Shown here piece after piece: positions 6,044-53,819 of a stretch of DNA of 64,000 nucleotides (positions within the stretch are counted from its first letter, which is position 1; the number at the start of each line of letters is the position of its first letter). The stretch covers positions 517,124-581,123 of the forward strand of contig JACKGC010000001.1 in NCBI GenBank assembly GCA_020632135.1, given 5' to 3'. Position numbers and translations under genes: made by a program. A model generated the notes under the pieces. The model saw nothing but the letters and a program-made list of their open reading frames with translations. It was not told the origin of the DNA and made no database searches. Source of the DNA: Candidatus Nomurabacteria bacterium. GTDB taxonomy: Bacteria; Patescibacteriota; Minisyncoccia; Phycocordibacterales; UBA918.

Positions 6044-6475
6044 TTAACCCGTATTACCAGTGCCAGTACAGAACGGAGCGGTGGGATCAATATCACAAGG
6101 ATCGTCAGTCGTTGGCCCGCCTGGGAAACCTTGCATTTGAATATAATCAGATGTTGGTGCACTTTGACCTCCACCACCAATACTATTCACTAACATGTTT
6201 ACAATGCCCCAAAAAGTGATCATAAGGACAAATGCCATGATACCGTAGAGTGCGAGCGACTTAGCTTTCTCTTGGTCTTCCTGATTGCTGCCACCAAGTA
6301 CAAAGTAACGGATGACGTTGATAATGAAGAAGAGAAATGCCATTCCGATCAAGAATGGAATAAAGACCCCGCTTAAGAAGTTCGTAAAAGCTACGAGGAA
6401 GGTTTGGAAGTCTTGAGCGTGAGTAATGGCCGGGAAAAGGAGCAGGCTAGCGGCTAGGATGGTTGGTTGTTTCAT
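6044..6475 (-). CDS. TrbC/VirB2-like (CPR-type T4SS pilin family) small membrane protein
   Basis: Signal peptide MKQPTILAASLLLFPAITHA|QD. Two TM helices flank a charged loop YFVLGGSNQEDQEKAKSLALYG, the typical VirB2-like topology. Gly-rich C-terminus. Start moved from 6484 to 6475 because 6483-6488 is a TATAAT box. Confidence 0.55.
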   Translation of the reverse strand: MKQPTILAASLLLFPAITHAQDFQTFLVAFTNFLSGVFIPFLIGMAFLFFIINVIRYFVLGGSNQEDQEKAKSLALYGIMAFVLMITFWGIVNMLVNSIGGGGQSAPTSDYIQMQGFPGGPTTDDPCDIDPTAPFCTGTGNTG

Positions 6476-6482
6476 ACCCTGC

Positions 6483-6488
6483 ATTATA
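6483..6488 (-). promoter_or_regulatory. -10 box TATAAT, 7 nt upstream of ATG 6475 (leaderless arrangement)
   Basis: Minus-strand reading is TATAAT gcagggt ATG. Confidence 0.5.
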
Positions 6489-6547
6489 GCTTATTGCGCG
6501 GTCGCTGGATGGCCGTCGATACACATTGACTTTTGATCCTAGTATTT

Positions 6548-6553
6548 TATAAT
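6548..6553 (+). promoter_or_regulatory. -10 box TATAAT for the leadered gene at 6593 (SD AAGGAG at 6581-6586)
   Basis: tttTATAATgc, then a leader of about 30 nt containing AAGGAG 6 nt before the ATG at 6593. Confidence 0.45.
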
Positions 6554-6592
6554 GCTGGTCGCAAAAGTGTGTGTTCTTCCAAGGAGTGAGTG

Positions 6593-6874
6593 ATGTTATT
6601 GTATAAAAAGCAACGTGTACGACGTATGGTTATCCGCACGGCTCTGTTCATCGGGCTTTCCACTGTCTTGATCACGGCGGCTAAGACTGGCTTGCAGGCA
6701 TCGCCGATACCGCAGATCTATTATGATGGTGAGCGGTGTGTGGGCGTGGATACGGAGTTTGGTCCTCGACCGTGCAGTAGTGCACAGGGTGGCGCATATA
6801 CAAAAGTGCTCGCTGAGCCTGGGTTAACCTACACTGAGTTTGCCAAGCGCTGGCGCACGTTGTATCGTCCGTGA
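6593..6874 (+). CDS. Small membrane-anchored hypothetical protein
   Basis: 93 codons from ATG 6593. Basic N-terminus followed by a TM helix TALFIGLSTVLITAA. SD present. Confidence 0.45.
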   Translation: MLLYKKQRVRRMVIRTALFIGLSTVLITAAKTGLQASPIPQIYYDGERCVGVDTEFGPRPCSSAQGGAYTKVLAEPGLTYTEFAKRWRTLYRP

Positions 6875-6993
6875 CACCATCCCCGAAAGACCTGGGTCCC
6901 ACCCCAGGTCTTTTATTATGGGTCTTTCAAATCAGTAAAAAATCTGCTATAGTTCTGGCCACTTGCAAAGATTTAACTTATTAAATTCTTTGT

Positions 6994-7067
6994 CCGCGCT
7001 TAGCTCAGTTGGCTAGAGCATTCGACTGATACTCGAAAGGCCCTAGGTTCGAATCCTAGAGCGCGGA
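6994..7067 (+). tRNA. tRNA-Ile (anticodon GAT), no encoded CCA
   Basis: Cloverleaf by hand. Acceptor ccgcgct/agcgcgg. D arm gctc-agttggcta-gagc. Anticodon arm ttcga-ctGATac-tcgaa. Variable region aggcc. T arm ctagg-ttcgaat-cctag. Discriminator A. Ile identity pairs C4-G69, U12-A23 and C29-G41 are present. Unusual C1-G72. Confidence 0.9.
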
Positions 7068-7092
7068 CAAAGAATTTAAGTCTGCGCGAGCT

Positions 7093-7161: not shown

Positions 7162-7225
7162 GTTGGCTAGAGCATTCGACTGATACTCGAAAGGCCCTAG
7201 GTTCGAATCCTAGAGCGCGGACAAA
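7162..7225 (+). repeat. Partial tRNA-Ile copy (3' 60 nt plus 4 nt of flank), att-scar-like direct repeat
   Basis: 7162-7225 is identical to 7008-7071 (64/64). It lacks the 5' acceptor strand and the 5' D-stem strand, so it is not a functional tRNA. Confidence 0.85.
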
Positions 7226-7238
7226 AAACGCAAAATAT

Positions 7239-7284
7239 CTCAAATGGTCTTGCGTAGTGCTCCCAGCACTACTCACTCGAAAGG
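7239..7284 (+). repeat. Structured repeat unit A (ggtcttgcg-hairpin-ctcac)
   Basis: ctcaaatggtcttgcg, tagtgct-ccc-agcacta, ctcactcgaaagg. Hairpin at 7255-7271. The 3' end shares the 11-mer actcgaaaggc with the tRNA (7031-7041). Confidence 0.5.
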
Positions 7285-7360
7285 CTGAAATGATCTGGGA
7301 GATCATTTCAGAACCTTTTGAGGTATTTCTGTAGCTTGCGAACAGAAATAGCCAAAAGGT
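7285..7360 (+). other. Two consecutive strong hairpins (unknown RNA or DNA structure)
   Basis: ctgaaatgatct 7285-7296 / agatcatttcag 7300-7311 (12 bp, loop ggg). accttttg 7313-7320 / caaaaggt 7353-7360, enclosing tatttctgt 7324-7332 / acagaaata 7342-7350. Confidence 0.5.
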
Positions 7361-7379
7361 GTACTGCTCCTGTAAGGAG

Positions 7380-7396
7380 GTAGGTTCGATTCTTAC
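7380..7396 (+). other. tRNA T-arm-like element without a tRNA body
   Basis: gtagg-ttcgatt-cttac. No matching acceptor or anticodon arm could be built around it. Confidence 0.3.
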
Positions 7397-7442
7397 AGAA
7401 TCTGTCCACTCATTGGATCTTTTTTCGCCAGCTCAAAAAGCT

Positions 7443-7488
7443 CTCAATGGGTCTTGCGCCAGTTCCCCGAACTGGCTCACCTCAAGGG
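7443..7488 (+). repeat. Structured repeat unit B (covaries with unit A)
   Basis: ctcaatgggtcttgcg, ccagttc-ccc-gaactgg, ctcacctcaaggg. Hairpin at 7459-7475. The flanks are conserved with unit A, while both stem strands changed in a compensatory way. Confidence 0.5.
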
Positions 7489-7536
7489 CACTTCCGAATT
7501 TATGGTCGAGTAAACTCTCCCTAAATTCTAGGGCGC

Positions 7537-7550
7537 TCCTAGAGCGTGGA
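7537..7550 (+). repeat. Decayed third copy of the tRNA-Ile 3' end
   Basis: tcctagagcgtgga versus the tRNA sequence tcctagagcgcgga at 7054-7067 (13/14). Confidence 0.45.
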
Positions 7551-7630
7551 AAAGGGTCTTTACTATGTAATTTTTGCATTCACTAGTGATATATGATTTA
7601 AATGATCATGGATCAGTTCAGGAAAAAGGT

Positions 7631-8334: not shown

Positions 8335-8419
8335 ATTAGTTAGTATAGCAGTCAAGTAATGCGGACAAATGATTTATCTACCGGTGGTAAATTTTGAAAA
8401 TTCCTCTATGATGCTCAAT

Positions 8420-9769
8420 ATGCATTTTGAGTCAGTCTTTCGAGGAAAAAAAATTACGGTGATGCGCATTGGCCTCTTGGGTCGGGGGGTCGGTGATGCT
8501 GCATTTTTAGCTGAGATGGGAGCGGATGTCCATGTGGTTGACGACGCGCCAGCAGAGGTGATGCAGCCATCGGTTGATGCACTCAAGGAATATAACAATG
8601 TGCGTTTTACGTTTGGTCCGTACCAGGAAGGGTATTTTACCGAAGCTGACTGCGTGTTGGTAGGTGCTGGTGCGCCACTGGAAATGCCGGTGCTTGAAGC
8701 CGCGCGTGTCGCGGGCGTGCCCCTAAAGCAAAGTGCTGCTTGGTTTGCGGAGTTGTCTAATGTGCCGATAATCGGCGTGACTGGCACACGCGGTAAAAGT
8801 ACTGTCACGCACATGATCCACCATGTGCTCTCTGAGGTAACGGGCGAGAAGATCCTCCTTGGTGGTAATGTGCGTGGTGTTTCAAACTTGCAGCTCCTTA
8901 AAGAAGTGCAGGAAGATTCGCTCTGTGTGATGGAGCTTGACTCGTGGCAACTACAGGGTTTTGGTTGGGCGAAGCTCAGTCCGCAGATCGCGGTCTTTAC
9001 CAACTTCATGGAAGATCATCTCAACTATTATCAAGCCGGTGGTAGGAGTAAAGCAGAAGCGATGAAACTCTATTTCGAAGACAAAGCTAACATCTTTCGC
9101 TATCAAGAAGAGAGTGGGGTGTTGGTGACTACGCCTGAGGTATTTGAACAAGCGAAATCCCTGAAAGGGATTTCGCTCGGTCAGGAGGTTATTCTCGCTG
9201 ATGCCTCGAGTATCTCGGAAGACTCATTGCTTTCTATGCCGGGCGAGCATAATCGGCTTAATGCCGCCCTGGCCTACGAGGCACTGAGGGCGATGAGTGT
9301 AAGTGATGAGGAGATCTTTTCCGGACTAGCGTCTTTCCCGGGTGTGCCGGGGCGGCTTGAGTACCTCGGTGAGCGAGATGGGGTGAAGATCTACAACGAC
9401 AACAACGCCACTACGCCGCACGCGACTGTGCGCGGGCTCCAAGCGGTGGGAAATGCAGATGATCAGAACGTCATTCTGATTGCTGGTGGGGCGTATAAGA
9501 ATATCGATCCGACTTCATTGCTCGATGAAATTACGAAGTATTGCAAAAAGGTGGTGTTGCTCCCAGGTACCGGCACCGACCTCATCAAAAAACAGCTTCA
9601 AGCAGATGTGGTGGAGAGTATGGCGGAGGCGGTAACGGCCGGGCTCGCCGCAGGCGAGCCCGGCGATGTACTTCTGTTCTCACCTGGCTTTGCTTCTTTT
9701 GGACTCTTTAAAAATGAATATGAACGCAATGATGCGTTTGTGCAGTGTATCAATCAAGCTGACATATAA
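8420..9769 (+). CDS. murD: UDP-N-acetylmuramoyl-L-alanine--D-glutamate ligase
   Basis: IGLLGRGVGDAAFLAEMGADV N-terminal Rossmann motif, GVTGTRGKSTV P-loop, and NDNNATTP. Start moved to 8420, 7 nt after TATGAT at 8407-8412. Confidence 0.9.
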   Translation: MHFESVFRGKKITVMRIGLLGRGVGDAAFLAEMGADVHVVDDAPAEVMQPSVDALKEYNNVRFTFGPYQEGYFTEADCVLVGAGAPLEMPVLEAARVAGVPLKQSAAWFAELSNVPIIGVTGTRGKSTVTHMIHHVLSEVTGEKILLGGNVRGVSNLQLLKEVQEDSLCVMELDSWQLQGFGWAKLSPQIAVFTNFMEDHLNYYQAGGRSKAEAMKLYFEDKANIFRYQEESGVLVTTPEVFEQAKSLKGISLGQEVILADASSISEDSLLSMPGEHNRLNAALAYEALRAMSVSDEEIFSGLASFPGVPGRLEYLGERDGVKIYNDNNATTPHATVRGLQAVGNADDQNVILIAGGAYKNIDPTSLLDEITKYCKKVVLLPGTGTDLIKKQLQADVVESMAEAVTAGLAAGEPGDVLLFSPGFASFGLFKNEYERNDAFVQCINQADI

Positions 9770-10552: not shown

Positions 10553-10609
10553 CGTAAATTCTCCTTTGAAAAGACACTCTAGAATGTGATATTATGCTAC
10601 GCTCACTGT

Positions 10610-13501: not shown

Positions 13502-13557
13502 GGCACGCTCAACCCGTTTGTGCAAGTCAAAGCTCATAGTGTAGAATGTCGCCACTC

Positions 13558-13800
13558 ATGAGCAAAGAAACACTAGTTTTCATTTCTGGTATCCTGCTGA
13601 CCGTCATTCCCTTTATGGGCATCCCGCACGCATGGCGGCAGTATACAGTCTTCGGGATTGGAATAGTGCTCATCCTCATTGGTTATATTTTGCGTCGAAG
13701 AGTATATCTCCACCGTTTCGACAAAGGTAATGGCGAGTGCGGCACGGATTCATTTGTTGAGACCACGGAGAAGCTTTTTGATGAAGGTGCGATAGAATAA
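13558..13800 (+). CDS. Small two-TM membrane protein
   Basis: Two hydrophobic helices. Start moved to 13558 because TAGAAT (13542-13547) overlaps the ORF-track ATG at 13546. Confidence 0.45.
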   Translation: MSKETLVFISGILLTVIPFMGIPHAWRQYTVFGIGIVLILIGYILRRRVYLHRFDKGNGECGTDSFVETTEKLFDEGAIE

Positions 13801-15145: not shown

Positions 15146-15204
15146 ATTGGCGGCCGACGGCAGGTAGGCTATGCTATCAGAGGAACAGTACCCGGAGGTG
15201 ATTC

Positions 15205-16984: not shown

Positions 16985-16993
16985 TGGTATACT
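16985..16993 (+). promoter_or_regulatory. Extended -10 box TGgTATACT, 8 nt before ATG 17002
   Basis: tgGTATACTgaagtgacATG. No SD. Confidence 0.5.
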
Positions 16994-20292: not shown

Positions 20293-20301
20293 TGGTACTA
20301 T
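20293..20301 (+). promoter_or_regulatory. Extended -10 box TGgTACTAT, 8 nt before ATG 20310
   Basis: tttTGgTACTATaagaaactATG. Confidence 0.45.
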
Positions 20302-20309: not shown

Positions 20310-21782
20310 ATGACAAATTCCACACAACAACTAGCGGTCGTGACTGGCGGAGCCGGTTTTGTGGGTTCACACCTCTGTGAGCGTCTCGTCAAGGAAGGGT
20401 ATGCAGTCATCTCACTCGATAATTACTTCACGGGCACGCCCGAGAATCACGTTGAGGGAGTAGCGTACCGCACCGGTCACACGAAAGACATCGCAGCGCT
20501 CATTGCTGAAACGCCAGATATCGTCTTTCATCTGGGTGAGTACGCGCGCACGGAAAAGAGTTTTGAAGATGTTGAATTGGTTTGGGACCTCAACAAGACC
20601 GGCACCTTTGCCGTGGCAGAGTTTTGCCGCCGCCGTGGGTCGAAGCTTGTATACGCCGGCTCCTCCACTAAGTTTGCTGATGGTGGTGATGGTCGCGACC
20701 AAAGTCCGTACGCCTGGACCAAAGCGACAAACACTGAACTGGTAAACAATTACGCAGCGTGGTTTGGCCTTGAGTATGCGATCGTGTATTTCTATAACGT
20801 CTATGGCCCGCGGGAGATGTCTGGCTCGTTTGGTACGCTCATTCGTATCTTCACCGAGCTCTATCGTAATGGACAGCCGCTCACAGTCACAGCGCCCGGC
20901 ACTCAAAAACGCAACTACACACACGTGTACGATATTGTCGACGGTATTATCTTGGCGGCCAAGGAAGGGCAGGGTGATGGCTACGGCATCGGCGCCGACC
21001 AACAGTTTTCGGTCCTTGATGTTGCAGAACTATTTGGCGGGGAGGTGGTGATGATGCCAGAACGAAAGGGAAACCGCATGACCGCTGGTGCTGACAACGC
21101 TAAAGTAAAAGCACTTGGCTGGAAACAGAAACACACCCTGCCGGAGTGGATCGCTCAGGTGAAAGCAGAGATCGGTACGGTACAAAGCGCCGAGCAGCGG
21201 GTGCTGGTGTACTCGACCACCTTCTTCCCCTATGCCGGAGCGGCAGAGCTGGCGCTCCGTGATCTGATCAAAGCACTGCCGAACGTCCAGTTTGACGTGA
21301 TCACGACTAAGTTTACTAAAGATGCAATGGAGGAAGACGATACGATCCCGAATGTCACTCTGCACCGCGTAGGGTATGGACATACGTTTGATAAATACTT
21401 GCTGCCGTTTTTGGGTGCTAGGATCAGTCGTCAGCTGCGTCGGCAGCGATCATACATGTTTCAGTGGACGTTGTTTGCAAGCTATGGTGCATTAGCCGCT
21501 CTCTTCTCAGGCCGCGCACAGAAGCTGCCGCTTTTGGTGACGCTGGCTGACCAAAAAGTGGCCAATATCCCTTGGTATGCTCGCGTGGTGTTTCGGCATG
21601 TGCTTGGTCAGGCAGATCAGGTCTATGCTATGGATACGTATGAAGCGCAGGCGGCTATCTCGCTCACGAAGCGCACTGCGCTTATTCGTTCGATTGGTGC
21701 TGGGGACGCATTTGCCAACCAGGTGCGCTTCACGTACACCGAATTCTTTAGGAAACGACTCGCTCACACAGATACAGTATGA
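20310..21782 (+). CDS. NAD-dependent sugar epimerase/dehydratase (UXS/RmlB-like short-chain dehydrogenase/reductase, SDR) fused to a GT-B N-terminal half-domain
   Basis: VVTGGAGFVGSHL and YAWTK (YxxxK) in the first 300 or so residues. The last 190 or so residues (RVLVYSTTFFPYAGAAELA..NVQFDVITTKF..NVTLHRVGYG) are paralogous to the N-terminal half of the GT4 at 23580. Confidence 0.75.
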   Translation: MTNSTQQLAVVTGGAGFVGSHLCERLVKEGYAVISLDNYFTGTPENHVEGVAYRTGHTKDIAALIAETPDIVFHLGEYARTEKSFEDVELVWDLNKTGTFAVAEFCRRRGSKLVYAGSSTKFADGGDGRDQSPYAWTKATNTELVNNYAAWFGLEYAIVYFYNVYGPREMSGSFGTLIRIFTELYRNGQPLTVTAPGTQKRNYTHVYDIVDGIILAAKEGQGDGYGIGADQQFSVLDVAELFGGEVVMMPERKGNRMTAGADNAKVKALGWKQKHTLPEWIAQVKAEIGTVQSAEQRVLVYSTTFFPYAGAAELALRDLIKALPNVQFDVITTKFTKDAMEEDDTIPNVTLHRVGYGHTFDKYLLPFLGARISRQLRRQRSYMFQWTLFASYGALAALFSGRAQKLPLLVTLADQKVANIPWYARVVFRHVLGQADQVYAMDTYEAQAAISLTKRTALIRSIGAGDAFANQVRFTYTEFFRKRLAHTDTV

Positions 21783-22753: not shown

Positions 22754-22761
22754 TAAGCATA

Positions 22762-36889: not shown

Positions 36890-36919
36890 AAAGAGGACTA
36901 TATGTCGTTTCTGTGACTT

Positions 36920-38008: not shown

Positions 38009-38137
38009 TAGATAGTTTGGAAGATTGTTACAAAACGCCTGTCTATTTCGTTAAACATACTATAAAAGCTTTGAAAGTAAAATATTTTATAATTAGCATT
38101 TTACTCCTAAGAGATGAGATTGTATGATAATTAAACT

Positions 38138-39214: not shown

Positions 39215-39225
39215 TCAGAAGAGGA

Positions 39226-40467
39226 CTAGTTTTTAAATAACAGACAGTAGCTCAGAATTGCTTTCGAATATTGGGTCAATACTCTTGAAAGCACGGCGCC
39301 CAATAATCCGAAAAAATAGGTTAAAGCTATAAGGGAGAGTATCTGTATGATACTTGTTACTATATCGAACTGATAAAGAGACCGTTCAGCTTTCTGGGCC
39401 ATGAGCGCCCCCATCGGTATATGGAACACAGAAGCAGGAAAGGCTAGGGCAAGAAGCTGTGCATAGGGAATAGCCTCAGGGTATTTGGGGAATAGTACTT
39501 CGTACAGTAATGGGACAAAATATAAGAACAGCAAAGTTGCTGTGAGTAGGATTGCAAGGAATTGAAATGAGCGCACAGGAATTGATTGTCGTAGGGTTTC
39601 CAGTGATTCGTGTCTTGAGTATTTAGGCAATAGCAATGTTTGCAAGTTTTTAAAGCTGCTTTTAATTTGGTTTGGAATTAAGGTTGCGATTGAGAATAGC
39701 GCCAGTTCAGCTGCGCCTAAATACTGGAAAATCACAATTGAATCTAACCCGTTAGCGATCTTTGAGAGTACTGTTCTGAGTGAAGTATGTTTAGCGTAGC
39801 GAATATGAGAAACCCATACTTTCGCAGGAATCACAGTGGTGTCTGCCTTTGTTGGCTTTAGTAGGAAGTATGAAAGAACAGAAACAAGAGCTTGCGCTAA
39901 AAAGTAGACAAATAGCAAGACCAACAGGTCTTTTGTTACATATAACGCCGCTAAACTTGCACCTGATACGGCAATTGATTTGATGGTGTGGAGATTTGAA
40001 ACAGTTCTAAACTGTGCCAGTCCAGTCTGATAAGAGCTAATATTTGAAAATAAATTGGTTGCAGGATGCAAGATCGCTATCATCACACACCCTATTGCGA
40101 GAGTAGCGTTCCCGTTGAGGTAGTAGTATCCAGCAAGGGTCAGAGAAGTTAAGAAAATTCCAAAACTGTACTTAATGGTGATGGGTAGGCTGGATAGTAA
40201 AAAATTTTGATACCCTTTTGCAGTAGCTTGCAGGATCGCTTGTGGTAGGCCGGTGAGTGAAAAGGCTGTCAATATAGCTGATAGTCCAATAATATATTTA
40301 TATGTCCCATAGATATTTTCAGACAAGTAATGTGCAAAAAATACTGCGGTTATGAGTGAAGCAGCAATTGTCGATGCTTGTGCGATGAGTAACCAGAAAC
40401 CGCCAGAGAGGAAGTATCTTCCGTCTGTACGCAGTCCTTTTGAAATTAAGCGAATAATTGGATCCAT
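39226..40467 (-). CDS. Polysaccharide flippase (Wzx/MOP superfamily)
   Basis: 413 codons. About 12 predicted TM helices, with the typical N-terminal basic segment followed by FWLLIAQA. Confidence 0.65.
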   Translation of the reverse strand: MDPIIRLISKGLRTDGRYFLSGGFWLLIAQASTIAASLITAVFFAHYLSENIYGTYKYIIGLSAILTAFSLTGLPQAILQATAKGYQNFLLSSLPITIKYSFGIFLTSLTLAGYYYLNGNATLAIGCVMIAILHPATNLFSNISSYQTGLAQFRTVSNLHTIKSIAVSGASLAALYVTKDLLVLLFVYFLAQALVSVLSYFLLKPTKADTTVIPAKVWVSHIRYAKHTSLRTVLSKIANGLDSIVIFQYLGAAELALFSIATLIPNQIKSSFKNLQTLLLPKYSRHESLETLRQSIPVRSFQFLAILLTATLLFLYFVPLLYEVLFPKYPEAIPYAQLLALAFPASVFHIPMGALMAQKAERSLYQFDIVTSIIQILSLIALTYFFGLLGAVLSRVLTQYSKAILSYCLLFKN

Positions 40468-40568
40468 CGTATAAAATGACGATTCATTATACCTCGTACA
40501 ACAAAACCTTTATTTAATTAGTTTTGTTATACTGTGTGCGCTTCTTATGTGTTCACCATCCGAGATCC

Positions 40569-42206
40569 ATGTACTCTGTCAAGTCAACGGTTAATTTTCG
40601 TCGCCTCAATTTGCGCGACAGACAACTTTTCGATTTGGAACTATTGCTCGTGGGCGCCTTTGCGCCGCTCCATGGCTTTATGAACCAGAGTGATTATGAG
40701 TCAGTTCTTTTGAATATGCGTCTTGAGAACGGTGCACTATCTCCAATACCGATAGTGCTCGATATTTCAAATGATACTGACTTTGAAGTGGGTGAGAAAA
40801 TTGTCCTCTGTGATCCATATGGTAATCCGATAGCGGTGATGGAAATTGAGAGTCGTTATCAGCCAGATAAACGGCAAGAGGCAATAAGCGTGTATGGTAC
40901 AGAGGACACAGCTCATCCAGGAGTAAGATATCTGTTGGATCAGATGTACGGTACGTACTTAGGAGGGACAGTCCACAAGCTCCAACTCGAAGCACGGCAC
41001 GACTTTAAGCAGCTTCGGTATACACCAGAAGAATTAAAAGAGGTCTTTAAAGAAAGGGGTTGGGAAAAAATCGTAGCGTTTCAAACACGTAACCCGATGC
41101 ATCGGGTACATTTTGAGCTGGTTAAACGTGCACACGAAATAACAGGAGCACCGGTCTTGGTGCACCCGGTGGTTGGTATGACACGAGAAGGTGATATCGA
41201 CTATATTACCCGCGTGCGCACCTATCAGGTTGTGTGTGATTCCTATGGTAAGGATTTTACTTTTTTAGCGCTGCTTCCTCTCGCCATGCGCATGGCAGGT
41301 CCGCGTGAAGCGATCTGGCACATGCTCATCCGTAAGAATTATGGAGCAACACACTTCATTATTGGTAGAGATCATGCGGGTCCCGGAAGAAATAGTGACG
41401 GTAAACCATTTTACGGTCCATACGAAGCACGTGACATCGCAAAGCGATATGCCAATGAGGTGGGTATTGAGATAGTCCCTAGCGCTGAGCTTGTATACCT
41501 TAAAGGGCGGGGTGCGTATGCAAGTTTAGATGAGGTAGGAGAAAATGAAGAAACTGAGGGTATTTCTGGTACGGAATTTCGCCGACGTCTGTTTTCTGGC
41601 GAAGAGATCCCTGATTGGTTTTCATTCCCTGAGAGCATTGCGGAATTGCGTCGAGGGGTGCAAAAGCAGCAGAGGCGTGGCATCACGATTTTTTTAACCG
41701 GTCTTTCTGGTTCAGGCAAGTCAACTATTGCTAACATATTGGCTACGAAGTTACGAGAAGTGCAAGACAGGGAAGTGACACTGCTTGATGGTGATGTGAT
41801 TCGCACCCATCTAACCAGTGAATTAGGCTTTTCTAAAGCTCATCGTGATTTGAATGTTGCAAGGGTTGGTTATGTGGCAAGCGAAATTACTAAGCATGGG
41901 GGCATTGCTATTTGTGCCATGATTGCACCATATGCATCTGCTAGAGCAAGAGCGCGAGATTTGGTTGAACAGTATGGCGCATTTATTGAGGTGCATGTTT
42001 CTACTCCACTTGCTGTGTGTGAATCCAGAGATGTTAAAGGATTGTATAACAAGGCCCGTAAGGGACTTATCAAAGGCTTCACGGGTATTGATGATCCATA
42101 CGAGGCACCTTCAATGCCGGACATCTCCCTAAATACAGACCTACTCTCGGCAGAACAATGCGCTGAAAGTTTGTTGCGTGAAATCAATAATCGGTATACC
42201 TCTTGA
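40569..42206 (+). CDS. sat-cysC: Bifunctional sulfate adenylyltransferase / adenylylsulfate kinase (PAPS synthase)
   Basis: QTRNPMHRVH and IIGRDHAGPG (ATP sulfurylase). C-terminal IFLTGLSGSGKSTIA P-loop (APS kinase). Start taken at ATG 40569. Confidence 0.9.
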   Translation: MYSVKSTVNFRRLNLRDRQLFDLELLLVGAFAPLHGFMNQSDYESVLLNMRLENGALSPIPIVLDISNDTDFEVGEKIVLCDPYGNPIAVMEIESRYQPDKRQEAISVYGTEDTAHPGVRYLLDQMYGTYLGGTVHKLQLEARHDFKQLRYTPEELKEVFKERGWEKIVAFQTRNPMHRVHFELVKRAHEITGAPVLVHPVVGMTREGDIDYITRVRTYQVVCDSYGKDFTFLALLPLAMRMAGPREAIWHMLIRKNYGATHFIIGRDHAGPGRNSDGKPFYGPYEARDIAKRYANEVGIEIVPSAELVYLKGRGAYASLDEVGENEETEGISGTEFRRRLFSGEEIPDWFSFPESIAELRRGVQKQQRRGITIFLTGLSGSGKSTIANILATKLREVQDREVTLLDGDVIRTHLTSELGFSKAHRDLNVARVGYVASEITKHGGIAICAMIAPYASARARARDLVEQYGAFIEVHVSTPLAVCESRDVKGLYNKARKGLIKGFTGIDDPYEAPSMPDISLNTDLLSAEQCAESLLREINNRYTS

Positions 42207-42276
42207 TCAAGTTATCAACGTGTGGATAGCGTGGTTGTGGTGATTAAAGAGTTAACATGCTTAGTATTATTTATTA

Positions 42277-43377
42277 ATGATATTGAGCATGAATGTCAGG
42301 CAGTTTCTTTTATTGGGAGTTTTAGTCATAGGAAGCTTAACAGGACCGAACATTAGTAATGCGGCCACAGAAACGGTAAGAATTTACGGGGAGGTTGGAG
42401 ACGGCAGGTTGGGGACTGGCCCATACCCAGGTTCATGGGTTACGCAACACGCTGATACAACTGGACGGCTGGTCGAATATACGCAAGACGTTATTCATGT
42501 AAAATCTGGCGCATTTTACTCACCGACGGGTTACCTAACTATCGATAGAGGCTTCCTTGTCTTTGATACCTCAACCATCCCTCAAACTGCGCAGATTACA
42601 AATGTTAAACTTGGATTATTTGTTACCGATAAATTTGATCAGTTCAATGATCAGTATGGTTATGTGTCGGTCTTGCAAGGTTTCCAACAGTCTACAGATT
42701 TTTTGGTTGCAGATGATATTGAAACTTGTGGGGATGTTTTGGTAAACCCCTCCAAAGGCTCAAGCGATTTTGATATAACAGATTTGACGCTGGATCAATA
42801 CCAAGAATTTGTTCTTAACAACACTGGGGTGACCTGGATTATGAAAGGGGGGTACACCAAACTCTGTATCCGTGAAGGACATGATATCGAGAACGTTGCA
42901 ACTGAAAAGATAAGTTTAGATGGCGGTTCTTGGGCTACAAATTCGTGGGATAGATCTGGATTAGAATTTGCCAGCGCTGACGCTTCTAATCCTGACACTC
43001 GACCATATATTGAAGTCACATATGAAGTAGTAGAAACAGAGACAACTCGGTGCCCCCTCCACGCCCAAATCAAATCGCCGCATCCGTCTGAGGTAGGGAC
43101 GGCTGGTTGGGAAGGCGAGGTGCTGCCAGAAGAGTTCACACGAGACATGTTTGTTGCGTTGGTTGCAGAAGCAACTGCTGATGAGTCAAACGCGACACAG
43201 CGTTTCTTTTCGCGTCAAGCAAATCGCATCTTTGATGCGGTTGATGCAGGACGTGAGGGGATAGCACTGATTCGATTGCGGGTGTTTGAGGTGCTGCTTT
43301 CGGCCAAGCAGGTGTCGTGTGCGTCACTGAATCAGGTGATCGAAGAATTGCGGGAGAGCCTGCGGGAGGAGTTGTAG
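42277..43377 (+). CDS. Secreted hypothetical protein
   Basis: Signal or anchor sequence LLLGVLVIGSLTGPNISNA. No family recognised. TATTAT box 6 nt upstream. Confidence 0.5.
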   Translation: MILSMNVRQFLLLGVLVIGSLTGPNISNAATETVRIYGEVGDGRLGTGPYPGSWVTQHADTTGRLVEYTQDVIHVKSGAFYSPTGYLTIDRGFLVFDTSTIPQTAQITNVKLGLFVTDKFDQFNDQYGYVSVLQGFQQSTDFLVADDIETCGDVLVNPSKGSSDFDITDLTLDQYQEFVLNNTGVTWIMKGGYTKLCIREGHDIENVATEKISLDGGSWATNSWDRSGLEFASADASNPDTRPYIEVTYEVVETETTRCPLHAQIKSPHPSEVGTAGWEGEVLPEEFTRDMFVALVAEATADESNATQRFFSRQANRIFDAVDAGREGIALIRLRVFEVLLSAKQVSCASLNQVIEELRESLREEL

Positions 43378-43399
43378 GAGGAGGTGAAGAGGAGTGAAG

Positions 43400-43435
43400 A
43401 TCAGCGGGGCGCCCGAAGGGCGCCCCGCTGATTTT
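43400..43435 (+). terminator. Rho-independent terminator
   Basis: atcagcggggcgccc gaa gggcgccccgctgat (15-bp stem) followed by TTT. Confidence 0.8.
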
Positions 43436-43537
43436 GCGTCTTGTGTACTGGTAGAATCTCTGTTCCACCCTATACCTCCCATTCTTCCTGCCGTCTAGAG
43501 ATTCCCCTGGTGTTGGGCGTGGTATAGTTTCACCCAT

Positions 43538-45769
43538 ATGAAAGATGTTTTGAAATGGGTAGTATTTGCCGGCCTGTTCACGGTCCCGCTCCTCACCCTT
43601 TATGTCGAGAATGATTATTTTTTCCCTTTTATTACTGGTAAAAACTTTGGGTTTCGCATCATTGTAGATATTCTTTTTGCAGCTTGGATACTTCTGGCGC
43701 TGTATGAAGTAAAGTATCGCCCGCGCGTATCGGGAATTGTGTGGAGTTTTGGCGTCCTTCTCATCATCATGTTCCTCGCTAATGTGTTTGGTCTCCATCC
43801 GCAGTCGAGCTTCTGGAGCAACTTTGAGCGTATGGATGGATATGTTTCGCTCATCCACACCTTCATGTACATGCTTGTGTTGGGGAGTGTGTTGCAAACA
43901 AAACAGGAGTGGCAGCGTCTACTTAACACATCGCTCATCGTAGCGTTTGTGGTTGCGCTCTATGGTCTCGCTCAATATGGCGGCATGATCGAAGGAGGCA
44001 ATCGTATCGACAGCCGACTTGGGAATGCTGCCTACATGGCAGTCTACATGCTCTTCCATATTTTCGTGGCGTTTTGGCTCTTTGTGGAGACGCGTAATGT
44101 ACTACTGAAGCTGTTCTACGGCACCATGGCTGCCATTTTTACCTTTGTGCTCTTGGAGACTGGTACTCGAGGTACAGCTATCGGCTTGGTGGTCGGAGTG
44201 ATGGTGATGTCGGCGTATATTGGTCTGTTTGGGAAGCGGTTTGTGCAGTATCGCAAGTACGCGATCGGCGGCCTCATCTTGCTTGTACTAGCAGCGGGAG
44301 CATTCATCATGGGGCGGGACTCAGCGTTTGTGCAAAATAATTACAACCTCTCTCGTATTGCCAACATCTCGCTCCAAGACCTCGAGATCCGTGGCATCAT
44401 CTGGGGGATGGCGTGGGATGGCGTGATGGAACGACCGCTGCTCGGATATGGCCAAAGTAACTTCAACTACGTGTTTAACCAAAACTACGATCCACGTCTG
44501 TATGCGCAAGAGCAGTGGTTTGATCGTGCCCACAACATCTTCATGGACTGGCTTATTACTGGCGGTTTCCTTGGCCTGATTGCCTACCTGAGTATTTTTG
44601 GTTGGTGTGTGTGGTACCTCTTGGTGGGGCCACTCATTAAGCCTGAAGACGAAACGTTCAACGTGATGGAGCGTGGTGTCTTGTTGGGTATCCTGGCTGG
44701 CTACTTCACACATAATCTTGTGGTGTTTGATAACATCGTCAGCTACATCTTCTTCGCGATCATCTTGGGGCTTATTAATGCTCGTGTTGGTCTCATCCCG
44801 CCTGCGGTAGCAAACTATAAGGTTGATCGGGTCATCATTACCCAATTTGCGGCACCAGTCGTGGCGGTGCTCCTAGTGGTGGGTCTCTACGTGTTCCATG
44901 TACCAGGTATGCAAGCAGCGGGAGACATTATTGATGCGTTTCGTGAACCGGATCCAGCGTTGCGACTGAAGGCTTTTGAGCAGGCGGTAGCACGTGACTC
45001 GTTTGCGCAGCAAGAGGTCACTGAGCAACTAGCGCAGCAGACCATCAGTATGGTCCGTAACCAGCAGGTGCCAGAGGAAGTGCGTCGTGAGTACGCTGCG
45101 TTTACTGAAGAGCAGTTGGTGAGACTCGCAGAGGATAAGCCAGGAGATGCACGGATTGAGGTATTCATTGGTAGTTACTATCGTGCGATCGGACAATTAG
45201 ACAAAGCTGCCGAGCACATGGCCATAGCGAGAGAGAATTCACCAAAGAAGCAGGCGATCATTTTGCAGCAAGGCTTCATTGCTCTCTCGGAGGGTAAAAA
45301 TCAAGAAGCAGTCGATTTTTTCAAGGAAGCGTACGAGCTTGATACTCGCAACCTGGAGGCTCGTGAGTACTACGCGGCGTCACTCTTCTACGTCGATCAG
45401 CCTGAGGCTGCTGCCGCACTGCTTCATAGTGATAATGAATCAGTAACAGATGAGACGATCTTACAGCGCTTCGCCGCCAGTGATTTCTTGATCTCGTCAG
45501 CCAATCAGTTTGGCCAGTACGCTTTTGCTGCACAACTCTTTGAGCATCGCGTACGTCCAGAAACAGGTGGCAAGCAAGAGTGGATAGACAATGCGCAAAA
45601 CTGGGCGACACTTGCGTATCTCTACTACCAAAATGACGAAGCAGAGAAAGCCATTGCAGTTCTGCAGGAGGCGATGAGCAAGATCCCTAGTTTCGAGCCA
45701 ACAGCCACCTGTTTCATTGATAACCTGGAGAATGGACGTGATCCACAAGAGGGTTGTCAGTCACAGTAG
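43538..45769 (+). CDS. O-antigen ligase/polymerase-like (Wzy_C) membrane protein with C-terminal TPR repeats
   Basis: About 12 TM helices. LETGTRGTAIGLVVG loop motif. The C-terminal 230 or so residues contain TPR-like repeats (AIGQLDKAAEHM..., EGKNQEAVDFFKEAYELD...). Confidence 0.7.
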   Translation: MKDVLKWVVFAGLFTVPLLTLYVENDYFFPFITGKNFGFRIIVDILFAAWILLALYEVKYRPRVSGIVWSFGVLLIIMFLANVFGLHPQSSFWSNFERMDGYVSLIHTFMYMLVLGSVLQTKQEWQRLLNTSLIVAFVVALYGLAQYGGMIEGGNRIDSRLGNAAYMAVYMLFHIFVAFWLFVETRNVLLKLFYGTMAAIFTFVLLETGTRGTAIGLVVGVMVMSAYIGLFGKRFVQYRKYAIGGLILLVLAAGAFIMGRDSAFVQNNYNLSRIANISLQDLEIRGIIWGMAWDGVMERPLLGYGQSNFNYVFNQNYDPRLYAQEQWFDRAHNIFMDWLITGGFLGLIAYLSIFGWCVWYLLVGPLIKPEDETFNVMERGVLLGILAGYFTHNLVVFDNIVSYIFFAIILGLINARVGLIPPAVANYKVDRVIITQFAAPVVAVLLVVGLYVFHVPGMQAAGDIIDAFREPDPALRLKAFEQAVARDSFAQQEVTEQLAQQTISMVRNQQVPEEVRREYAAFTEEQLVRLAEDKPGDARIEVFIGSYYRAIGQLDKAAEHMAIARENSPKKQAIILQQGFIALSEGKNQEAVDFFKEAYELDTRNLEAREYYAASLFYVDQPEAAAALLHSDNESVTDETILQRFAASDFLISSANQFGQYAFAAQLFEHRVRPETGGKQEWIDNAQNWATLAYLYYQNDEAEKAIAVLQEAMSKIPSFEPTATCFIDNLENGRDPQEGCQSQ

Positions 45770-45771
45770 TC

Positions 45772-46739
45772 ATGTCACTGCAGATCAGGGAACATGTTCC
45801 ATTGGCAGCGTACACCACCTTACATGTAGGTGGTGTTGCTGATTATTTGGTGGAGGTGGGGAGCGTGGAGGAGTTACGGGCGGCGGGTCAAATGTACTTA
45901 TCGGAGATGCTGGCTACCGCGGACTCGTCATCATCAATCAGATCATGGGGCGTGCGTATTCAGAGCAAAGAGATGACGTTACGCTCACCTGTGGCGCGGG
46001 TGAGATACTTGATGCGGTGGTAGCTGATACAGTTGCACGAAACTACTGGGGCCTCGAGAACCTCAGTGCTATCCCAGGGACGGTCGGCGCCACCCCGATT
46101 CAGAATGTGGGTGCCTATGGGGTTGAAGTCTCGTCGCTGGTCACAGCGGTGCGTGCAGTACACGTTGATACGCTTGAAGAAAAAGTCTTCAGTACTGCTG
46201 CGTGTCAGTTCGGGTACCGAGACTCATTCTTTAAGACCAGTGAAGGGCGCGCGTGGGTTGTGGTTGAGGTAACTGTATTACTCAGTAAAGCACCAGCTCC
46301 ACAGCTCACCTACGGTGCGCTGGCGGAGCTACAGTCGCAAACAAACCTCTCATCGAGTCAGGTGCGGGAAAAGGTTGTATCGATCCGGGCAGGCAAATTT
46401 CCTGATTGGCATATCGTCGGAACGGCCGGTTCTTTTTTTAAGAATCCTATTATCTCGCGTGCACAGTATGAACAGCTGTGCGAGAAATATCCCGAGTTGC
46501 CAGGTTACCCAACGCCGGTTGGTGAGGTAAAGGTGTCTCTTGGGTGGATCCTTGATCATGTGTGTCATCTGCGTGGGTATTGTCAAGACGGTGTGTGCCT
46601 CTATGAGCAGCAAGCATTGGTGTTAGTTAATGTAGCGGCGAAGAACGCAAACGCGATTGATGTGTTTGCCGACCACATAGCGAATCGTGTCGCTGATAAG
46701 ACTGGTATCAGCATCGAACGTGAGGTGAGAAAGGTGTAA
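45772..46739 (+). pseudogene. murB: UDP-N-acetylenolpyruvoylglucosamine reductase MurB, reading frame disrupted near 45880-45890
   Basis: Frame 1 (from ATG 45772) gives SLQIREHVPLAAYTTLHVGGVADYLVEVGSVEELRAAG, then nonsense. Another frame (open from 45843) gives GGGSNVLIGDAGYRGLVIINQIMG and then the rest of a type I MurB (GLENLSAIPGTVGATPIQNVGAYGVE, FGYRDSFFK, GSFFKNP). Confidence 0.6.
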
Positions 46740-47176: not shown

Positions 47177-47284
47177 TTGGTGCGGAGGTGGTTAGACACC
47201 TTCGTGTAAAACTAGTTGCATAATCGCCCGCACGGGCGATTTTTGCTTTGTAATTGCCAAAAATACGTATATACTACGGCCATT

Positions 47285-51299: not shown

Positions 51300-51323
51300 C
51301 GCATTTATTGAATTAAACCTACA

Positions 51324-52748
51324 ATGATCATGTCGTACACCCCTACCATCGGCTTAGAGGTACATGCTGAGCTGAAAACAGAGAGTAAGATGTTCTGTGG
51401 TTGCAAGAATGATCCACACAGCAGTGAGGTAAACAGTAACATCTGTCCAGTTTGTCTTGCGCACCCAGGCACCCTACCAGTGCCAAATGAGCATGCGATA
51501 AAAAAAGTACTTTTGTTTGGTGAGGCAGTGGGGGCAACAGCCGCAACTTATTCGGAGTTTGATCGAAAAAATTACTTCTACCCGGACATCCCGAAGGCGT
51601 ATCAGATCAGTCAGTATGCCTTCCCGTTTCTCAGTGGGGGTGAGCTCGAAGGAATAGCGCTGACCCGCGTACACCTGGAAGAAGATACTGCACGTAATCA
51701 ACATGACAAAGGAACAGGTAGTCTAGTTGACTTCAATCGTTCGGGAGTACCACTAATGGAACTCGTGACCGAACCTGTTATTCACGATCAAGCGACCGCT
51801 GGTCAATTTGCTCGTGAGCTACAGCTGCTTCTTCGCACGTTTGGTATTTCAGATGCAAACATGGAACGTGGAGAGATGCGCGTTGAGGCCAATATATCTG
51901 TGAGCAAGGAAGAGGGTGTTCTGGGTACGAAGGTTGAGGTGAAGAATCTAAACTCCTTTAAATCGGTCGAGGCAGCGATTGCGTACGAGATCGCTCGACA
52001 GATCGAGTTGCTAGAGAGTGGGGGTGAGGTGGCTCAGGAAACACGAGGTTGGGATGAAAACCGCAGCAAGACTTTCTCGCAGCGATCAAAGGAAACAGCT
52101 AAGGATTACCGCTACTTCCCAGATCCGGATATACCGAAGATGGACATCAGCCTAATAGGCGACTTCAGTAAAGCTCGCCTAAACGAGATAATGCCTAAAT
52201 TACCGAGCAATAAAAGGACTGAGTATGAAAATCTCGGTTTAACGAGAGAGTCAATCGAGACAATGATCTCTCAACCCGAACTAGATAGCTTTTTTGCTGC
52301 AGTGCTTCTTGATGCGAATGCGAAGGATAATGCGGAAGTGCTTACATTGGCAGCTAATTACTTAACTTCGGATGTAGTGCCACTCTTAGCTGATCCTCAG
52401 TACTCTCTTGAGCAGCTCTCTGTAGCTCACTATATCGAGCTTATGACCATGTTATATGAGGGTAAGATTGGTTCTCGTGTGGCTAAGGATCTTCTGTCAA
52501 CGATGTTTGCCGCCACTAAGGGGCCTCTGACGCTAGCTGAAGAGCAGGGATTGCTTCAGGTATCAGACACATCCTCCCTCCAGGGATTTATAGATGAGGT
52601 TATTGCTGAGAATCCAACTGTAGTCGCAGACTACAAGGCTGGGAAGGAGGTTGCGTTGAAATTTTTGGTTGGCCAGGGGATGAAGAAGAGTAAGGGTGCG
52701 GCCAATCCAGCAGTGCTGAACGAGATGCTACAGCGTGCCTTAAAATAA
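51324..52748 (+). CDS. gatB: Aspartyl/glutamyl-tRNA amidotransferase subunit B
   Basis: TIGLEVHAELKTESKMFCGC, YFYPDIPKAYQISQ, and RYFPDPD. The start could be 51330. Confidence 0.95.
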   Translation: MIMSYTPTIGLEVHAELKTESKMFCGCKNDPHSSEVNSNICPVCLAHPGTLPVPNEHAIKKVLLFGEAVGATAATYSEFDRKNYFYPDIPKAYQISQYAFPFLSGGELEGIALTRVHLEEDTARNQHDKGTGSLVDFNRSGVPLMELVTEPVIHDQATAGQFARELQLLLRTFGISDANMERGEMRVEANISVSKEEGVLGTKVEVKNLNSFKSVEAAIAYEIARQIELLESGGEVAQETRGWDENRSKTFSQRSKETAKDYRYFPDPDIPKMDISLIGDFSKARLNEIMPKLPSNKRTEYENLGLTRESIETMISQPELDSFFAAVLLDANAKDNAEVLTLAANYLTSDVVPLLADPQYSLEQLSVAHYIELMTMLYEGKIGSRVAKDLLSTMFAATKGPLTLAEEQGLLQVSDTSSLQGFIDEVIAENPTVVADYKAGKEVALKFLVGQGMKKSKGAANPAVLNEMLQRALK

Positions 52749-52772
52749 ACGTATCTCGTCTACCCGTGCAGT

Positions 52773-52800
52773 AATACACCTCATCATGAGGTGTATTTTG
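52773..52800 (+). terminator. Rho-independent terminator after gatB
   Basis: aatacacctc atcat gaggtgtatt followed by a T-rich tract. Confidence 0.7.
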
Positions 52801-52826
52801 TTTTCATCTGGTAGAATAATTACATT

Positions 52827-53819
52827 ATGGAGACCGTGACATACGATGGTGTCGATTATGTAAAAGCCTCTGCGGCCGCAAAGGAGTTTCGGTATACCTC
52901 TGACTACATTGGCCAACTGTGCCGAACCGGGAAAGTAAATGCACGATTGGTTGGCAGGACATGGTTCGTTGATGTTGATTCACTCCAGACGCACCGTAAG
53001 AATCGACACATGAAGACAACTGGGAAGAGTCGCATTGATTACACTGAAGACCTCGGTGTGGGTAGTAAAATAAAGCCATCTCGTATCACGGTTGATTCGG
53101 TGCCCAATGCGAAGACGATCCATCAGGCGCTTCAGCCGCAGAAGCATCAAGCAGAGAGGCAGCGCATGCTGGCGGTTTCGTATGAACGTGATGAAGAGGC
53201 ACTACTACCTAGTCTCATCAAGAAGAAGTTGATGAAGCCGAAGGTCGTTCGTGTGGAGATCGCGGGAGCTAAAAAGGTACGTGTCGGTGGCCCAACCAGG
53301 CTGACCACATTCACTGCCACTGACGTCCCAGAAGTCGCGTTGTCTGGAGAGCTTAAGGTGACTACCTATCAGGCTCAGCCGGAAACTCCAAAAAAGATCG
53401 AACAGGATGATTTATCTGATAAACGAGATAACCCTAAAAATAAAAGTATTTTAAATAAAATCTCGGATAGTTCTGCTAAGCGTAAGTTAATGGATGGTGA
53501 TGGTAAGAGGTCTCAACAGACTGCCTTCGTTGAAACGCGTGTTGACGATGTGCGTGGGAATGCGTCAGTAACTCGTACTAGCGGTTCAGCTCTCGCTCAA
53601 CCCTCGCTTGACTTCACTCCTGTCACTACTTTGCGAGTGCCTCGGCTACAACGAGTGAATGTGTTTTTGCGGTTCTCTCCGGTGATCGCTACTGTGGTTG
53701 CGATTTTGTGTGTTGCAGCGATTTTCTCTGCGAGTGGCATGGCGGTTGTCACTGACTCTTCGTATCAGGCGAAGGTGGTCTTGCAGGTCGCGAATTTGCT
53801 CGAGATCTTACGTCAGTAA
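52827..53819 (+). CDS. Membrane-anchored protein with N-terminal excisionase/MerR-like HTH (paralog 1)
   Basis: N-terminus DGVDYVKASAAAKEFRYTSDYIGQLCRTGKVNARLVGRTWFVDVDSL. K/E-rich linker. C-terminal TM VIATVVAILCVAAIFSASGMAVV. TGgTAGAAT box 9 nt upstream. Confidence 0.6.
   Translation: METVTYDGVDYVKASAAAKEFRYTSDYIGQLCRTGKVNARLVGRTWFVDVDSLQTHRKNRHMKTTGKSRIDYTEDLGVGSKIKPSRITVDSVPNAKTIHQALQPQKHQAERQRMLAVSYERDEEALLPSLIKKKLMKPKVVRVEIAGAKKVRVGGPTRLTTFTATDVPEVALSGELKVTTYQAQPETPKKIEQDDLSDKRDNPKNKSILNKISDSSAKRKLMDGDGKRSQQTAFVETRVDDVRGNASVTRTSGSALAQPSLDFTPVTTLRVPRLQRVNVFLRFSPVIATVVAILCVAAIFSASGMAVVTDSSYQAKVVLQVANLLEILRQ

Follow-up and report, generated by a model that had tools for sequence, protein, structure and literature searches.

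Gene content and lineage of the window

The stretch of DNA analysed here, 64 kb of contig JACKGC010000001.1, is referred to as the window, and the elements under study are TATAAT-like hexamers (boxes) located a few nucleotides upstream of its start codons. The window has a GC content of about 50%, with a low-GC island at 32-44 kb. It codes for cell-envelope and glycan proteins, SecA, Obg, GatB, pilins and a VirD4-like ATPase, and contains a complete 16S rRNA gene (4339-5798) and a tRNA-Ile gene (6994-7068). SecA shares 50-83% identity with proteins of uncultivated Patescibacteria/Paceibacteria metagenome-assembled genomes labelled Kaiser-, Nomura-, Zambryski-, Taylor- or Parcubacteria, and one protein of the window matches an NCBI entry from "Candidatus Kaiserbacteria bacterium" with 100% identity. 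These matches bear out the membership in the candidate phyla radiation (CPR) that had been guessed in an earlier, sequence-only reading of the window.

Boxes beside start codons

The sequence-only reading had listed 16 genes with a box directly before the ATG and no Shine-Dalgarno (SD) sequence between the two. All 16 boxes and start codons were found where it had placed them, with gaps of 6-10 nt between box and ATG, and GGAG, GAGG or AGGA was absent from this interval in each of the 16 genes. Fifteen of the boxes match TATAAT in at least 5 of 6 positions including A2 and T6, and the weakest is TACTAT before 20310. The listed boxes are as follows:

6483-6488, minus strand: TATAAT, 7 nt to ATG 6475, type IV secretion system pilin-like gene 6044-6475; orthologues start MKK, with TATAAT or TATACT at 6-8 nt
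8342-8350, minus strand: TGcTATACT, 7 nt to ATG 8334, small protein; orthologues have TGcTATAAT or TATACT at 6-9 nt
8407-8412, plus strand: TATGAT, 7 nt to ATG 8420, MurD; orthologue N-termini align at 8420, with the box at 6-7 nt
13542-13547, plus strand: TAGAAT, 10 nt to ATG 13558; the orthologue in related locus L166 starts MSKETIVFISGILL, with TATACT at 7 nt
13793-13798, plus strand: TAGAAT overlapping the upstream stop, 6 nt to ATG 13805, DUF4015; the equivalent in L166 is TACAATAA
15470-15475, plus strand: TATCAT, 6 nt to ATG 15482, YkuD and D-Ala-D-Ala carboxypeptidase; an in-frame stop lies immediately 5'
16985-16993, plus strand: TGgTATACT, 8 nt to ATG 17002, VirD4/TrwB-like
20293-20301, plus strand: TGgTACTAT, 8 nt to ATG 20310, epimerase; the weakest hexamer (4/6)
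22749-22754, plus strand: TATAGT in the terminal part of the preceding gene, 7 nt to ATG 22762, methyltransferase
24821-24829, plus strand: TGtTATATT, 6 nt to ATG 24836, CofD-like
28569-28577, plus strand: TGtTATACT, 8 nt to ATG 28586, glycosyltransferase
38123-38131, plus strand: TATGATAAT (TATGAT and GATAAT overlapping), 9 or 6 nt to ATG 38138, GT47-like
42265-42270, plus strand: TATTAT, 6 nt to ATG 42277
43520-43528, plus strand: TGgTATAGT, 9 nt to ATG 43538, Wzy-TPR
47270-47275, plus strand: TATACT, 9 nt to ATG 47285, SecA
52809-52817, plus strand: TGgTAGAAT, 9 nt to ATG 52827

Five further boxes, absent from the earlier list, were added:

3236-3241, plus strand: TATACT, 10 nt to ATG 3252, type IV pilin with the motif GFTLMEV
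26337-26345, plus strand: TGcTAAAAT, 9 nt to ATG 26355, glycosyltransferase; its start overlaps the stop of the preceding gene as well
29956-29964, plus strand: TGaTATGAT, 10 nt to ATG 29975, methyltransferase
32560-32565, minus strand: TATACT, 10 nt to ATG 32549, TylF methyltransferase
36897-36902, minus strand: TATAGT, 7 nt to ATG 36889, PLP enzyme

For the methyltransferase, 29975 rather than 29960 is the probable true start.

The boxes were counted with start codons assigned by a rule blind to them, namely the first ATG of each long non-overlapping open reading frame (ORF), with the upstream sequence ignored to avoid circularity. A strict hexamer was defined as a match of at least 5 of 6 positions to TATAAT, with A2 and T6 required. 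The 50 box-blind genes of the window had 17 strict hexamers at gaps of 6-10 nt, against 0.7 expected from the window-wide rate and 2.8 from the local upstream rate (Poisson p = 3e-18 and 8e-9, respectively). The comparison set, 80 Paceibacteria loci around secA orthologues (1.2 Mb, 866 box-blind starts), had 245 strict boxes at these gaps against about 48 expected (p = 5e-91). In the negative control, 50 kb of E. coli run through the same script, a proximal box was present at 0 of 36 starts and SD-like motifs at 17 of 36, indicating that the method detects SD sequences where they are present.

Such a peak could arise as an artefact of composition or annotation, from AT-rich intergenic DNA combined with starts chosen by their box. 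Intergenic DNA is more AT-rich than coding DNA, and the sequence-only reading had chosen some starts via the box. However, the peak persisted both under the box-blind start rule and under a start-blind box rule, in which 7 of the 19 strict TGn-extended boxes of the window were followed at 6-10 nt by an ATG opening a long ORF. It was limited to 6-10 nt, with neighbouring offsets in the same upstream DNA at background. Boxes also lie inside coding sequence (before 13805, 22762 and 26355), orthologue N-termini confirm the starts, and many box-associated ATGs directly follow an in-frame stop and therefore cannot be moved upstream. AT-richness is not the explanation of the enrichment, because the window is about 50% GC. 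The artefact is thus already refuted, and we assign it a negligible probability. Enrichment of the hexamer exceeds background composition in the window and in the 80 related loci, which confirms that the box beside the start is real and extends well beyond the window.

The arrangement was also conserved in orthologues. The N-terminus MSFLDRFFGP of SecA is conserved, and a box precedes 39 of 64 secA orthologues with a varying spacer. Of 44 wzy orthologues, 36 retain the box (TGgTATAGT in the window), in most cases at 9 nt and with CAT preceding the ATG, and gene 52827 has a box in 24 of 27. Box and spacing are likewise conserved at murD, 8334, 13558, 13805 and the pilin gene 6475, while the spacer sequence drifts. 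Four start corrections proposed in the earlier reading (6484 to 6475, 8355 to 8334, 8369 to 8420 and 13546 to 13558) agree with orthologue N-termini that have boxes of their own; the support is strong for 8420, comes from few sequences for 8334 and 6475, and from one orthologue for 13558. For secA, orthologue N-termini strongly favour 47285 over TTG 47216. The geometry, statistics and conservation of the box are thus direct observations.

Probable promoter character of the box

In sigma-70 promoters, transcription begins about 7 nt after the -10 element, and extended -10 promoters have the form TGnTATAAT with a weak or dispensable -35. In the box-aligned profile, T (54%) and G (57%) predominated at the TGn positions, and a weak TTG was present at 17-bp spacing. 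TG occurred at -15/-14 in 44% of start-proximal boxes and in 10% of distal hexamer matches. The lower edge of the spacing was sharp, with 5 boxes at a 5-nt gap and 73 at 6 nt, and the start-blind test showed the same onset. Such an edge is expected of a promoter if the AUG may not begin ahead of the transcript's first base. The start codon after the box was ATG in 127 cases, GTG in 3 and TTG in 6 in the related loci, and ATG in all 7 cases of the start-blind test in the window.

The occurrence of the box also depended on gene arrangement. In the related loci, its frequency was 7-14%, the background level, at overlapping or adjacent genes, and 22-45% (mostly 37-45%) for strict hexamers or 48-65% for TANNNT at genes with an upstream spacer of at least 16 nt. 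A box was present in 75% (9/12) of divergent pairs 31-60 nt apart. The tRNA-Ile gene of the window is preceded by TGcTATAGT (6945-6953, plus strand) about 40 nt upstream, so that the same promoter consensus stands before a non-coding gene. The promoters of 13805, 22762 and 26355 are located within the final stretch of the gene before, and tightly packed genes on the same strand therefore appear to be separate transcription units. Taken together, the view that the start-proximal hexamers are sigma-70-type -10 elements, often extended (TGnTAnnnT) and with a weak -35, is well supported by these sequence features.

A different interpretation is that the mRNAs are leadered or polycistronic and that the TA-rich hexamer serves translation at the RNA level (as a non-SD ribosome-binding or unstructured AU-rich element, as in 'group B' of GeneMarkS-2) rather than as a promoter. 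A ribosome without an anti-SD sequence (see below) needs some substitute. Many boxes lie only 4-40 nt after a preceding gene on the same strand, where read-through is likely, and among genes that follow another gene at a distance of 5-15 nt, 21% still have a box. However, a ribosome signal does not require TG one base upstream, TTG a further 17 bp away or the A2 and T6 of a Pribnow box, and it does not predict the abrupt stop below 6 nt. It also predicts boxes at overlapping internal genes, where they are at background, and the same consensus precedes a tRNA gene. We therefore regard an RNA-level signal as very unlikely.

Loss of the anti-SD sequence from 16S rRNA

The 16S rRNA gene of the window does not have the canonical 3' tail, a feature not noted in the sequence-only reading. 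The tail is GGAUUAAUUCCAAUU where the canonical sequence is GGAUCACCUCCUUA, and it lies in the window as follows:

5785-5799, plus strand: 16S 3' tail GGATTAATTCCAATT; the position of the anti-SD core (5791-5795) is ATTCC, not CCTCC

The end of the gene including the tail is GGAUUAAUUCCAAU, compared with the bacterial consensus GGAUcACCUCCUUu, and helix 45 is intact. Metagenomes were scanned for the exact helix-45 string, which yielded 120 contigs, and CCTCC was present in the 16S tail of 0 of these 120 clade relatives. The tails differ among the relatives, and 27 are identical to that of the window although their trailers have diverged. The 16S tail of a locus labelled Nomurabacteria (L071) is likewise without CCTCC. 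The loss of the anti-SD is in this respect observed directly.

Consistent with this, SD-type motifs (GGAG, GAGG, AGGA and AGGAG at -5 to -12) were not enriched over the 866 clade starts, none of the related loci was SD-rich, and the upstream regions of the window showed no excess of complementarity, over control regions, to the canonical 16S tail or to their own. Two replacements for the anti-SD were considered and rejected. A displaced anti-SD was suggested by CATCTCCT (5892-5899), about 100 nt beyond helix 45, which resembles UCACCUCCU; this string is an arm of a hairpin that covaries in the 27 relatives, and CTCCT occurs downstream of the 16S tail in only 13 of the 120 relatives, at chance level. 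A new SD pairing with the tail itself (GGAAUUAA-like) was not borne out either, as GGAA and GGAAT were unenriched and duplex energies equalled those of control regions.

Several other features were observed around the rRNA and tRNA genes. About 160 nt downstream of the 16S tail (5799-5960) are structurally conserved in the 27 relatives as three hairpins with covarying arms, and the conserved strings of this trailer region include GCTAATTGGTCGAT and GGGAAAGACC. The trailer sequence GGATAAGACAAAAGTG (5938-5953) is perfectly complementary to CACTTTTGTCTTATCC (4230-4245) in the 16S leader, which suggests a long stem for pre-rRNA processing. The 23S gene is not present after the 16S gene. The 3' 62 nt of tRNA-Ile (compare 6994-7071) are duplicated at 7163-7224, about 95 nt past the 3' end of the gene and about 155 nt from copy to copy, and the duplicate resembles the attachment-site remnant of an integrated element. 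The following 7225-7560 (about 350 nt) has no convincing ORF and includes a further T-arm-like string, GGTTCGATTC, near 7385.

SD-like motifs in a few leaders

According to the sequence-only reading, a minority of genes with longer leaders are led by AGGAG. AGGAG or GGAGG is indeed present 6-9 nt before each of the five starts concerned, and these genes have recognisable promoters 25-35 nt upstream of their starts:

691-696, plus strand: AGGAGG, SD-like, 8-9 nt before ATG 705
1428-1432, plus strand: AGGAG, SD-like, 7 nt before ATG 1440
6526-6553, plus strand: near-consensus promoter TTGACT-16-TATAAT, followed by AGGAG at 6582-6586, 6 nt before ATG 6593
10561-10565, minus strand: AGGAG, 8 nt before ATG 10552, pgeF; GAGGA or AAGGAG in two orthologues
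15194-15198, plus strand: GGAGG, 6 nt before ATG 15205; a 64-aa ORF, then a terminator-like hairpin

The claim that these genes are SD-led was unsupported as it had been put, given that the 16S rRNA (4339-5798) and its 120 relatives are without CCUCC and that complementarity is not in excess. The AGGAG motifs cannot act by canonical SD/anti-SD pairing, because the 16S tail has no CCUCC.

A mixed regime, with leaderless genes beside a minority in which an SD genuinely pairs with the ribosome, nevertheless draws on several facts. The five motifs before promoter-bearing starts compare with about 0.5 expected in the window. Two pgeF orthologues, with 53% and 41% identity, keep the motif along with an upstream CATAAT promoter. 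The 27 relatives with diverged trailers share the unchanged tail GGAUUAAUUCCAAUU, and its UUCC could pair with GGAG(U) in 4-5 pairs using one G-U. However, such duplexes with the tail itself are weak (-3.6 to -5.7 kcal/mol), CCUCC is missing from the 16S tail, and neither the window nor the 866 clade starts showed SD enrichment at the population level. In addition, about 20 internal pairs of AGGAG plus a start occur in the window by chance, and the pgeF motif partly overlaps the -35 of the divergent murC promoter. We consider a mixed regime unlikely. The AGGAG/GGAGG motifs may represent a residual mini-SD, a purine tract that opens structure or a promoter overlap.

The idea that the AGGAG genes are recent horizontal acquisitions was unsupported in general, and the pgeF motif is conserved in orthologues. 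Homologues of 705, 1440, 6593 and 15205 were not found in about 200 related loci, few of which cover that region. The NCBI product of pgeF has 243 aa, 4 residues fewer than the ORF from ATG 10552, and would match the in-frame GTG 10540.

Gene classes and a model of translation initiation

The 48 genes of the window could be sorted by the position of the box. In class 1 (about 21-22/48), comprising the 16 listed genes plus 3252, 26355, 29975, 32549(-) and 36889(-), the box is at 6-10 nt. Class 2 (4-5/48) has the box at 14-18 nt and a short leader, and includes murC 10610, 34179(-), 40467(-), 53903 and probably obg. Class 3 (about 9/48) comprises boxless genes that overlap the upstream stop or lie at most 6 nt from it, and class 4 (5/48) comprises the genes 705, 1440, 6593, 10552(-) and 15205, with a 25-35 nt leader and AGGAG or GGAGG. 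Examples of classes 2 and 3 are the following:

10587-10595, plus strand: TGaTATTAT, 14 nt to ATG 10610, MurC (class 2)
53882-53887, plus strand: TATAAT, 15 nt to ATG 53903, at the centre of a conserved palindrome (class 2)
21779-21782, plus strand: ATGA start/stop overlap (class 3); other 4-nt overlaps are at 25828 and 33349(-)
23580, 45772 and 60928: starts 2 nt after the upstream stop (class 3)
18885, 30853 and 54644: starts 5-6 nt after the upstream stop (class 3)

Judging from this layout, the class 3 genes are probably translated by termination-reinitiation.

We consider it likely, with good confidence, that this member of an SD-less bacterial clade expresses its genes mostly from leaderless mRNAs, or mRNAs with leaders of 0-3 nt, together with stop/start coupling, and the same appears to hold for its relatives. 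RNA polymerase would initiate on the A of the AUG or 1-3 nt upstream of it; with gaps of 6-7 nt, the first base would be the A itself. The resulting mRNAs, without a ribosome-binding leader, would be decoded through direct recognition of the 5'-terminal AUG. We propose that leaderless starts would be the main initiation route of this Kaiserbacteria-like bacterium as a consequence of the anti-SD loss from its ribosome. The 4-5 short-leader genes would have leaders of about 5-12 nt, and uncoupled close genes on the same strand would each be served by a separate promoter located in the final part of the gene before. The leaderless part of the sequence-only reading is backed by the TGn, the weak -35, the 6-nt limit, the depletion at overlaps, the conservation and the preference for ATG, whereas canonical SD pairing is unsupported for its SD-led minority; the positions of transcription starts and the mode of ribosome loading are what we infer.

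Several points weigh against this reading. Gaps of about 8-10 nt (secA, wzy) would give a 2-3 nt leader and an AUG that is not strictly 5'-terminal, which fits the conserved CA 2-3 nt before the secA and wzy ATGs. About 8 of the 48 genes, such as gatB, fit no class. The five well-placed AGGAG/GGAGG motifs are more than expected, and with the conservation at pgeF they mean that some purine-rich element may still matter at these genes. T at -1 was only modestly more frequent in box genes (62%) than in others (50%); it was dropped as a start-site marker for being weakly discriminating. Starts in the related loci came from a crude rule, so the fractions given for them are approximate.

The layout of gatB varies within the clade. 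Its orthologues start MSYTPT, which points to ATG 51330, not 51324. In the closest relatives, a conserved GTACAAT lies about 25-30 nt upstream, near the obg stop, and is followed by an AT-rich leader without an SD, whereas in relatives further away a TGaTATAAT box stands 6-9 nt before the ATG. From these alignments, gatB seems to switch between leadered and leaderless layouts.

Other features of the window

The TATAAT before gene 53903 is the centre of a near-perfect palindrome, CGATTTAACTTTATAATTAAAGTTAAATCG (53869-53900), which is kept in orthologues with both arms varying together. It may act as an operator; alternatively, it may form a hairpin that overlaps this gene's promoter. Gene 53903 precedes two consecutive giant ORFs, 54644-60925 (2093 aa) and 60928 to beyond 64000 (more than 1024 aa), which have no Pfam match and are tightly coupled to one another and to gene 53903. 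Two strict extended -10 sequences lack a long ORF. TGgTAGAAT at 43449-43457 precedes the wzy promoter by 70 nt and may serve as a tandem promoter or drive a small RNA, and TGaTATGAT at 2919-2927 (minus strand) lies 8 nt before a 30-codon ORF (2910-2818, minus strand).

The low-GC island (32000-44000) has 38-45% GC compared with about 52% elsewhere. Its genes code for a sulfotransferase, Sat-CysC, TylF and FkbM methyltransferases, Wzx, Wzy and a GT47-like protein, related to glycan modification, and it looks horizontally acquired or hypervariable. It nevertheless has the same box-beside-ATG layout. The gene murB (45772-46739) begins 2 nt past the stop codon of wzy and seems to contain a frameshift: residues 1-39 of orthologues align in one frame (45772-45894) and residues from 54 on in a second frame (from 45888), with about 15 residues missing. 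It is either a pseudogene or an assembly error. The type IV pilin gene (3252-3851, plus strand), with the prepilin motif GFTLMEV, starts at ATG 3252, and the plain ORF list extends it to GTG 3195. The minus-strand ORF 3376-4044 was rejected as a gene, being a shadow of this pilin gene.

Comparison with known systems

Actinobacteria, Deinococcus and archaea are well-known cases of leaderless initiation, and the lineages of 'group C' of GeneMarkS-2 retain the CCUCC anti-SD. In this group (mainly Actinobacteria, e.g., Mycobacterium tuberculosis, and Deinococcus-Thermus), the start codon of operon-first genes is preceded at 6-8 nt by a Pribnow box with no SD between them, an estimated 25-50% of transcripts are leaderless, and the remaining genes use SD sites; the survey of groups does not mention CPR (PMC6028130). 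Our clade shares with group C a box 6-10 nt from the start, no SD between and a signal at the first genes of units. In contrast, it is without an anti-SD or SD enrichment, its TGn is prominent, and its non-leaderless genes are mostly stop/start-coupled. The promoters themselves are of the ordinary extended -10 type, and only their placement against the AUG is unusual.

The mRNAs of Bacteroidetes are leadered. In Flavobacterium johnsoniae, SD sequences are absent genome-wide, and Bacteroidetes are reported to keep the anti-SD and to adjust initiation through mRNA secondary structure and Kozak-like nucleotides around the start codon (PMC6847099). Our clade similarly shows no SD enrichment, but here the promoter abuts the AUG and the anti-SD is lost. 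In archaeal leaderless genomes (Haloferax and Saccharolobus; GeneMarkS-2 'group D'), many operon-first genes are leaderless and some lineages are without a conserved CCUCC (PMC6028130, PMC10783764). They differ in the distance of the promoter box, which is about 26 nt upstream, and in their archaeal initiation machinery.

The loss of the anti-SD in a subgroup of Parcubacteria has been reported previously. Only 48% of Parcubacteria have CCTCCT, and SD helices are presumably unformed; leaderless mRNAs are unmentioned in that report (Tsurumaki et al., 2022, RNA 28:1041, PMC9297842). The organisms listed as being without CCUCC also include Campbellbacteria and Wolfebacteria (PLoS One 2024, PMC10783764). 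The window and its 120 helix-45 relatives belong to such a CCUCC-less group of Parcubacteria, for which the published reports name no replacement of the SD. Among open-access papers and bioRxiv preprints, only incidental mentions of leaderless genes in CPR, Patescibacteria, Parcubacteria or Saccharibacteria were found, and no link between the anti-SD loss of Parcubacteria and leaderless genes; an earlier description elsewhere is possible. The sole CPR start-site set found in the literature is that of Nanosynbacter lyticus, a Saccharibacterium and thus of a different class. Our results represent a new lineage for a known mechanism, and the distinguishing feature is the absence of an SD back-up.

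Implications

The findings have practical consequences. Gene callers tuned to SD sequences misplace starts here, and a plain ORF track is wrong at 6484, 8355, 8369, 13546 and 47216. Operon predictions based on intergenic distance fail where promoters sit within the upstream gene, and expression tools for CPR should fuse TGnTATAAT 6-9 nt before the ATG and omit the SD.

Judging from the sequences, a large clade of uncultivated bacteria appears to be without SD machinery, which would provide a testable answer to how translation starts in anti-SD-less Parcubacteria. Whether a broad clade (Paceibacteria/Parcubacteria labelled Kaiser-, Nomura-, Zambryski-, Taylorbacteria and others) has abandoned SD initiation for leaderless starts and reinitiation is a proposition on which we are evenly divided. 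If it is true, each uncoupled gene of these bacteria would have about one promoter, lying within the coding sequence before it, and the AGGAG kept in some leaders could, like the invariant tail with its UUCC, mark a residual or alternative mode of recognition. They would be a bacterial counterpart of the haloarchaeal and crenarchaeal regime, and would answer the question left open by the reported loss of the anti-SD in Parcubacteria.

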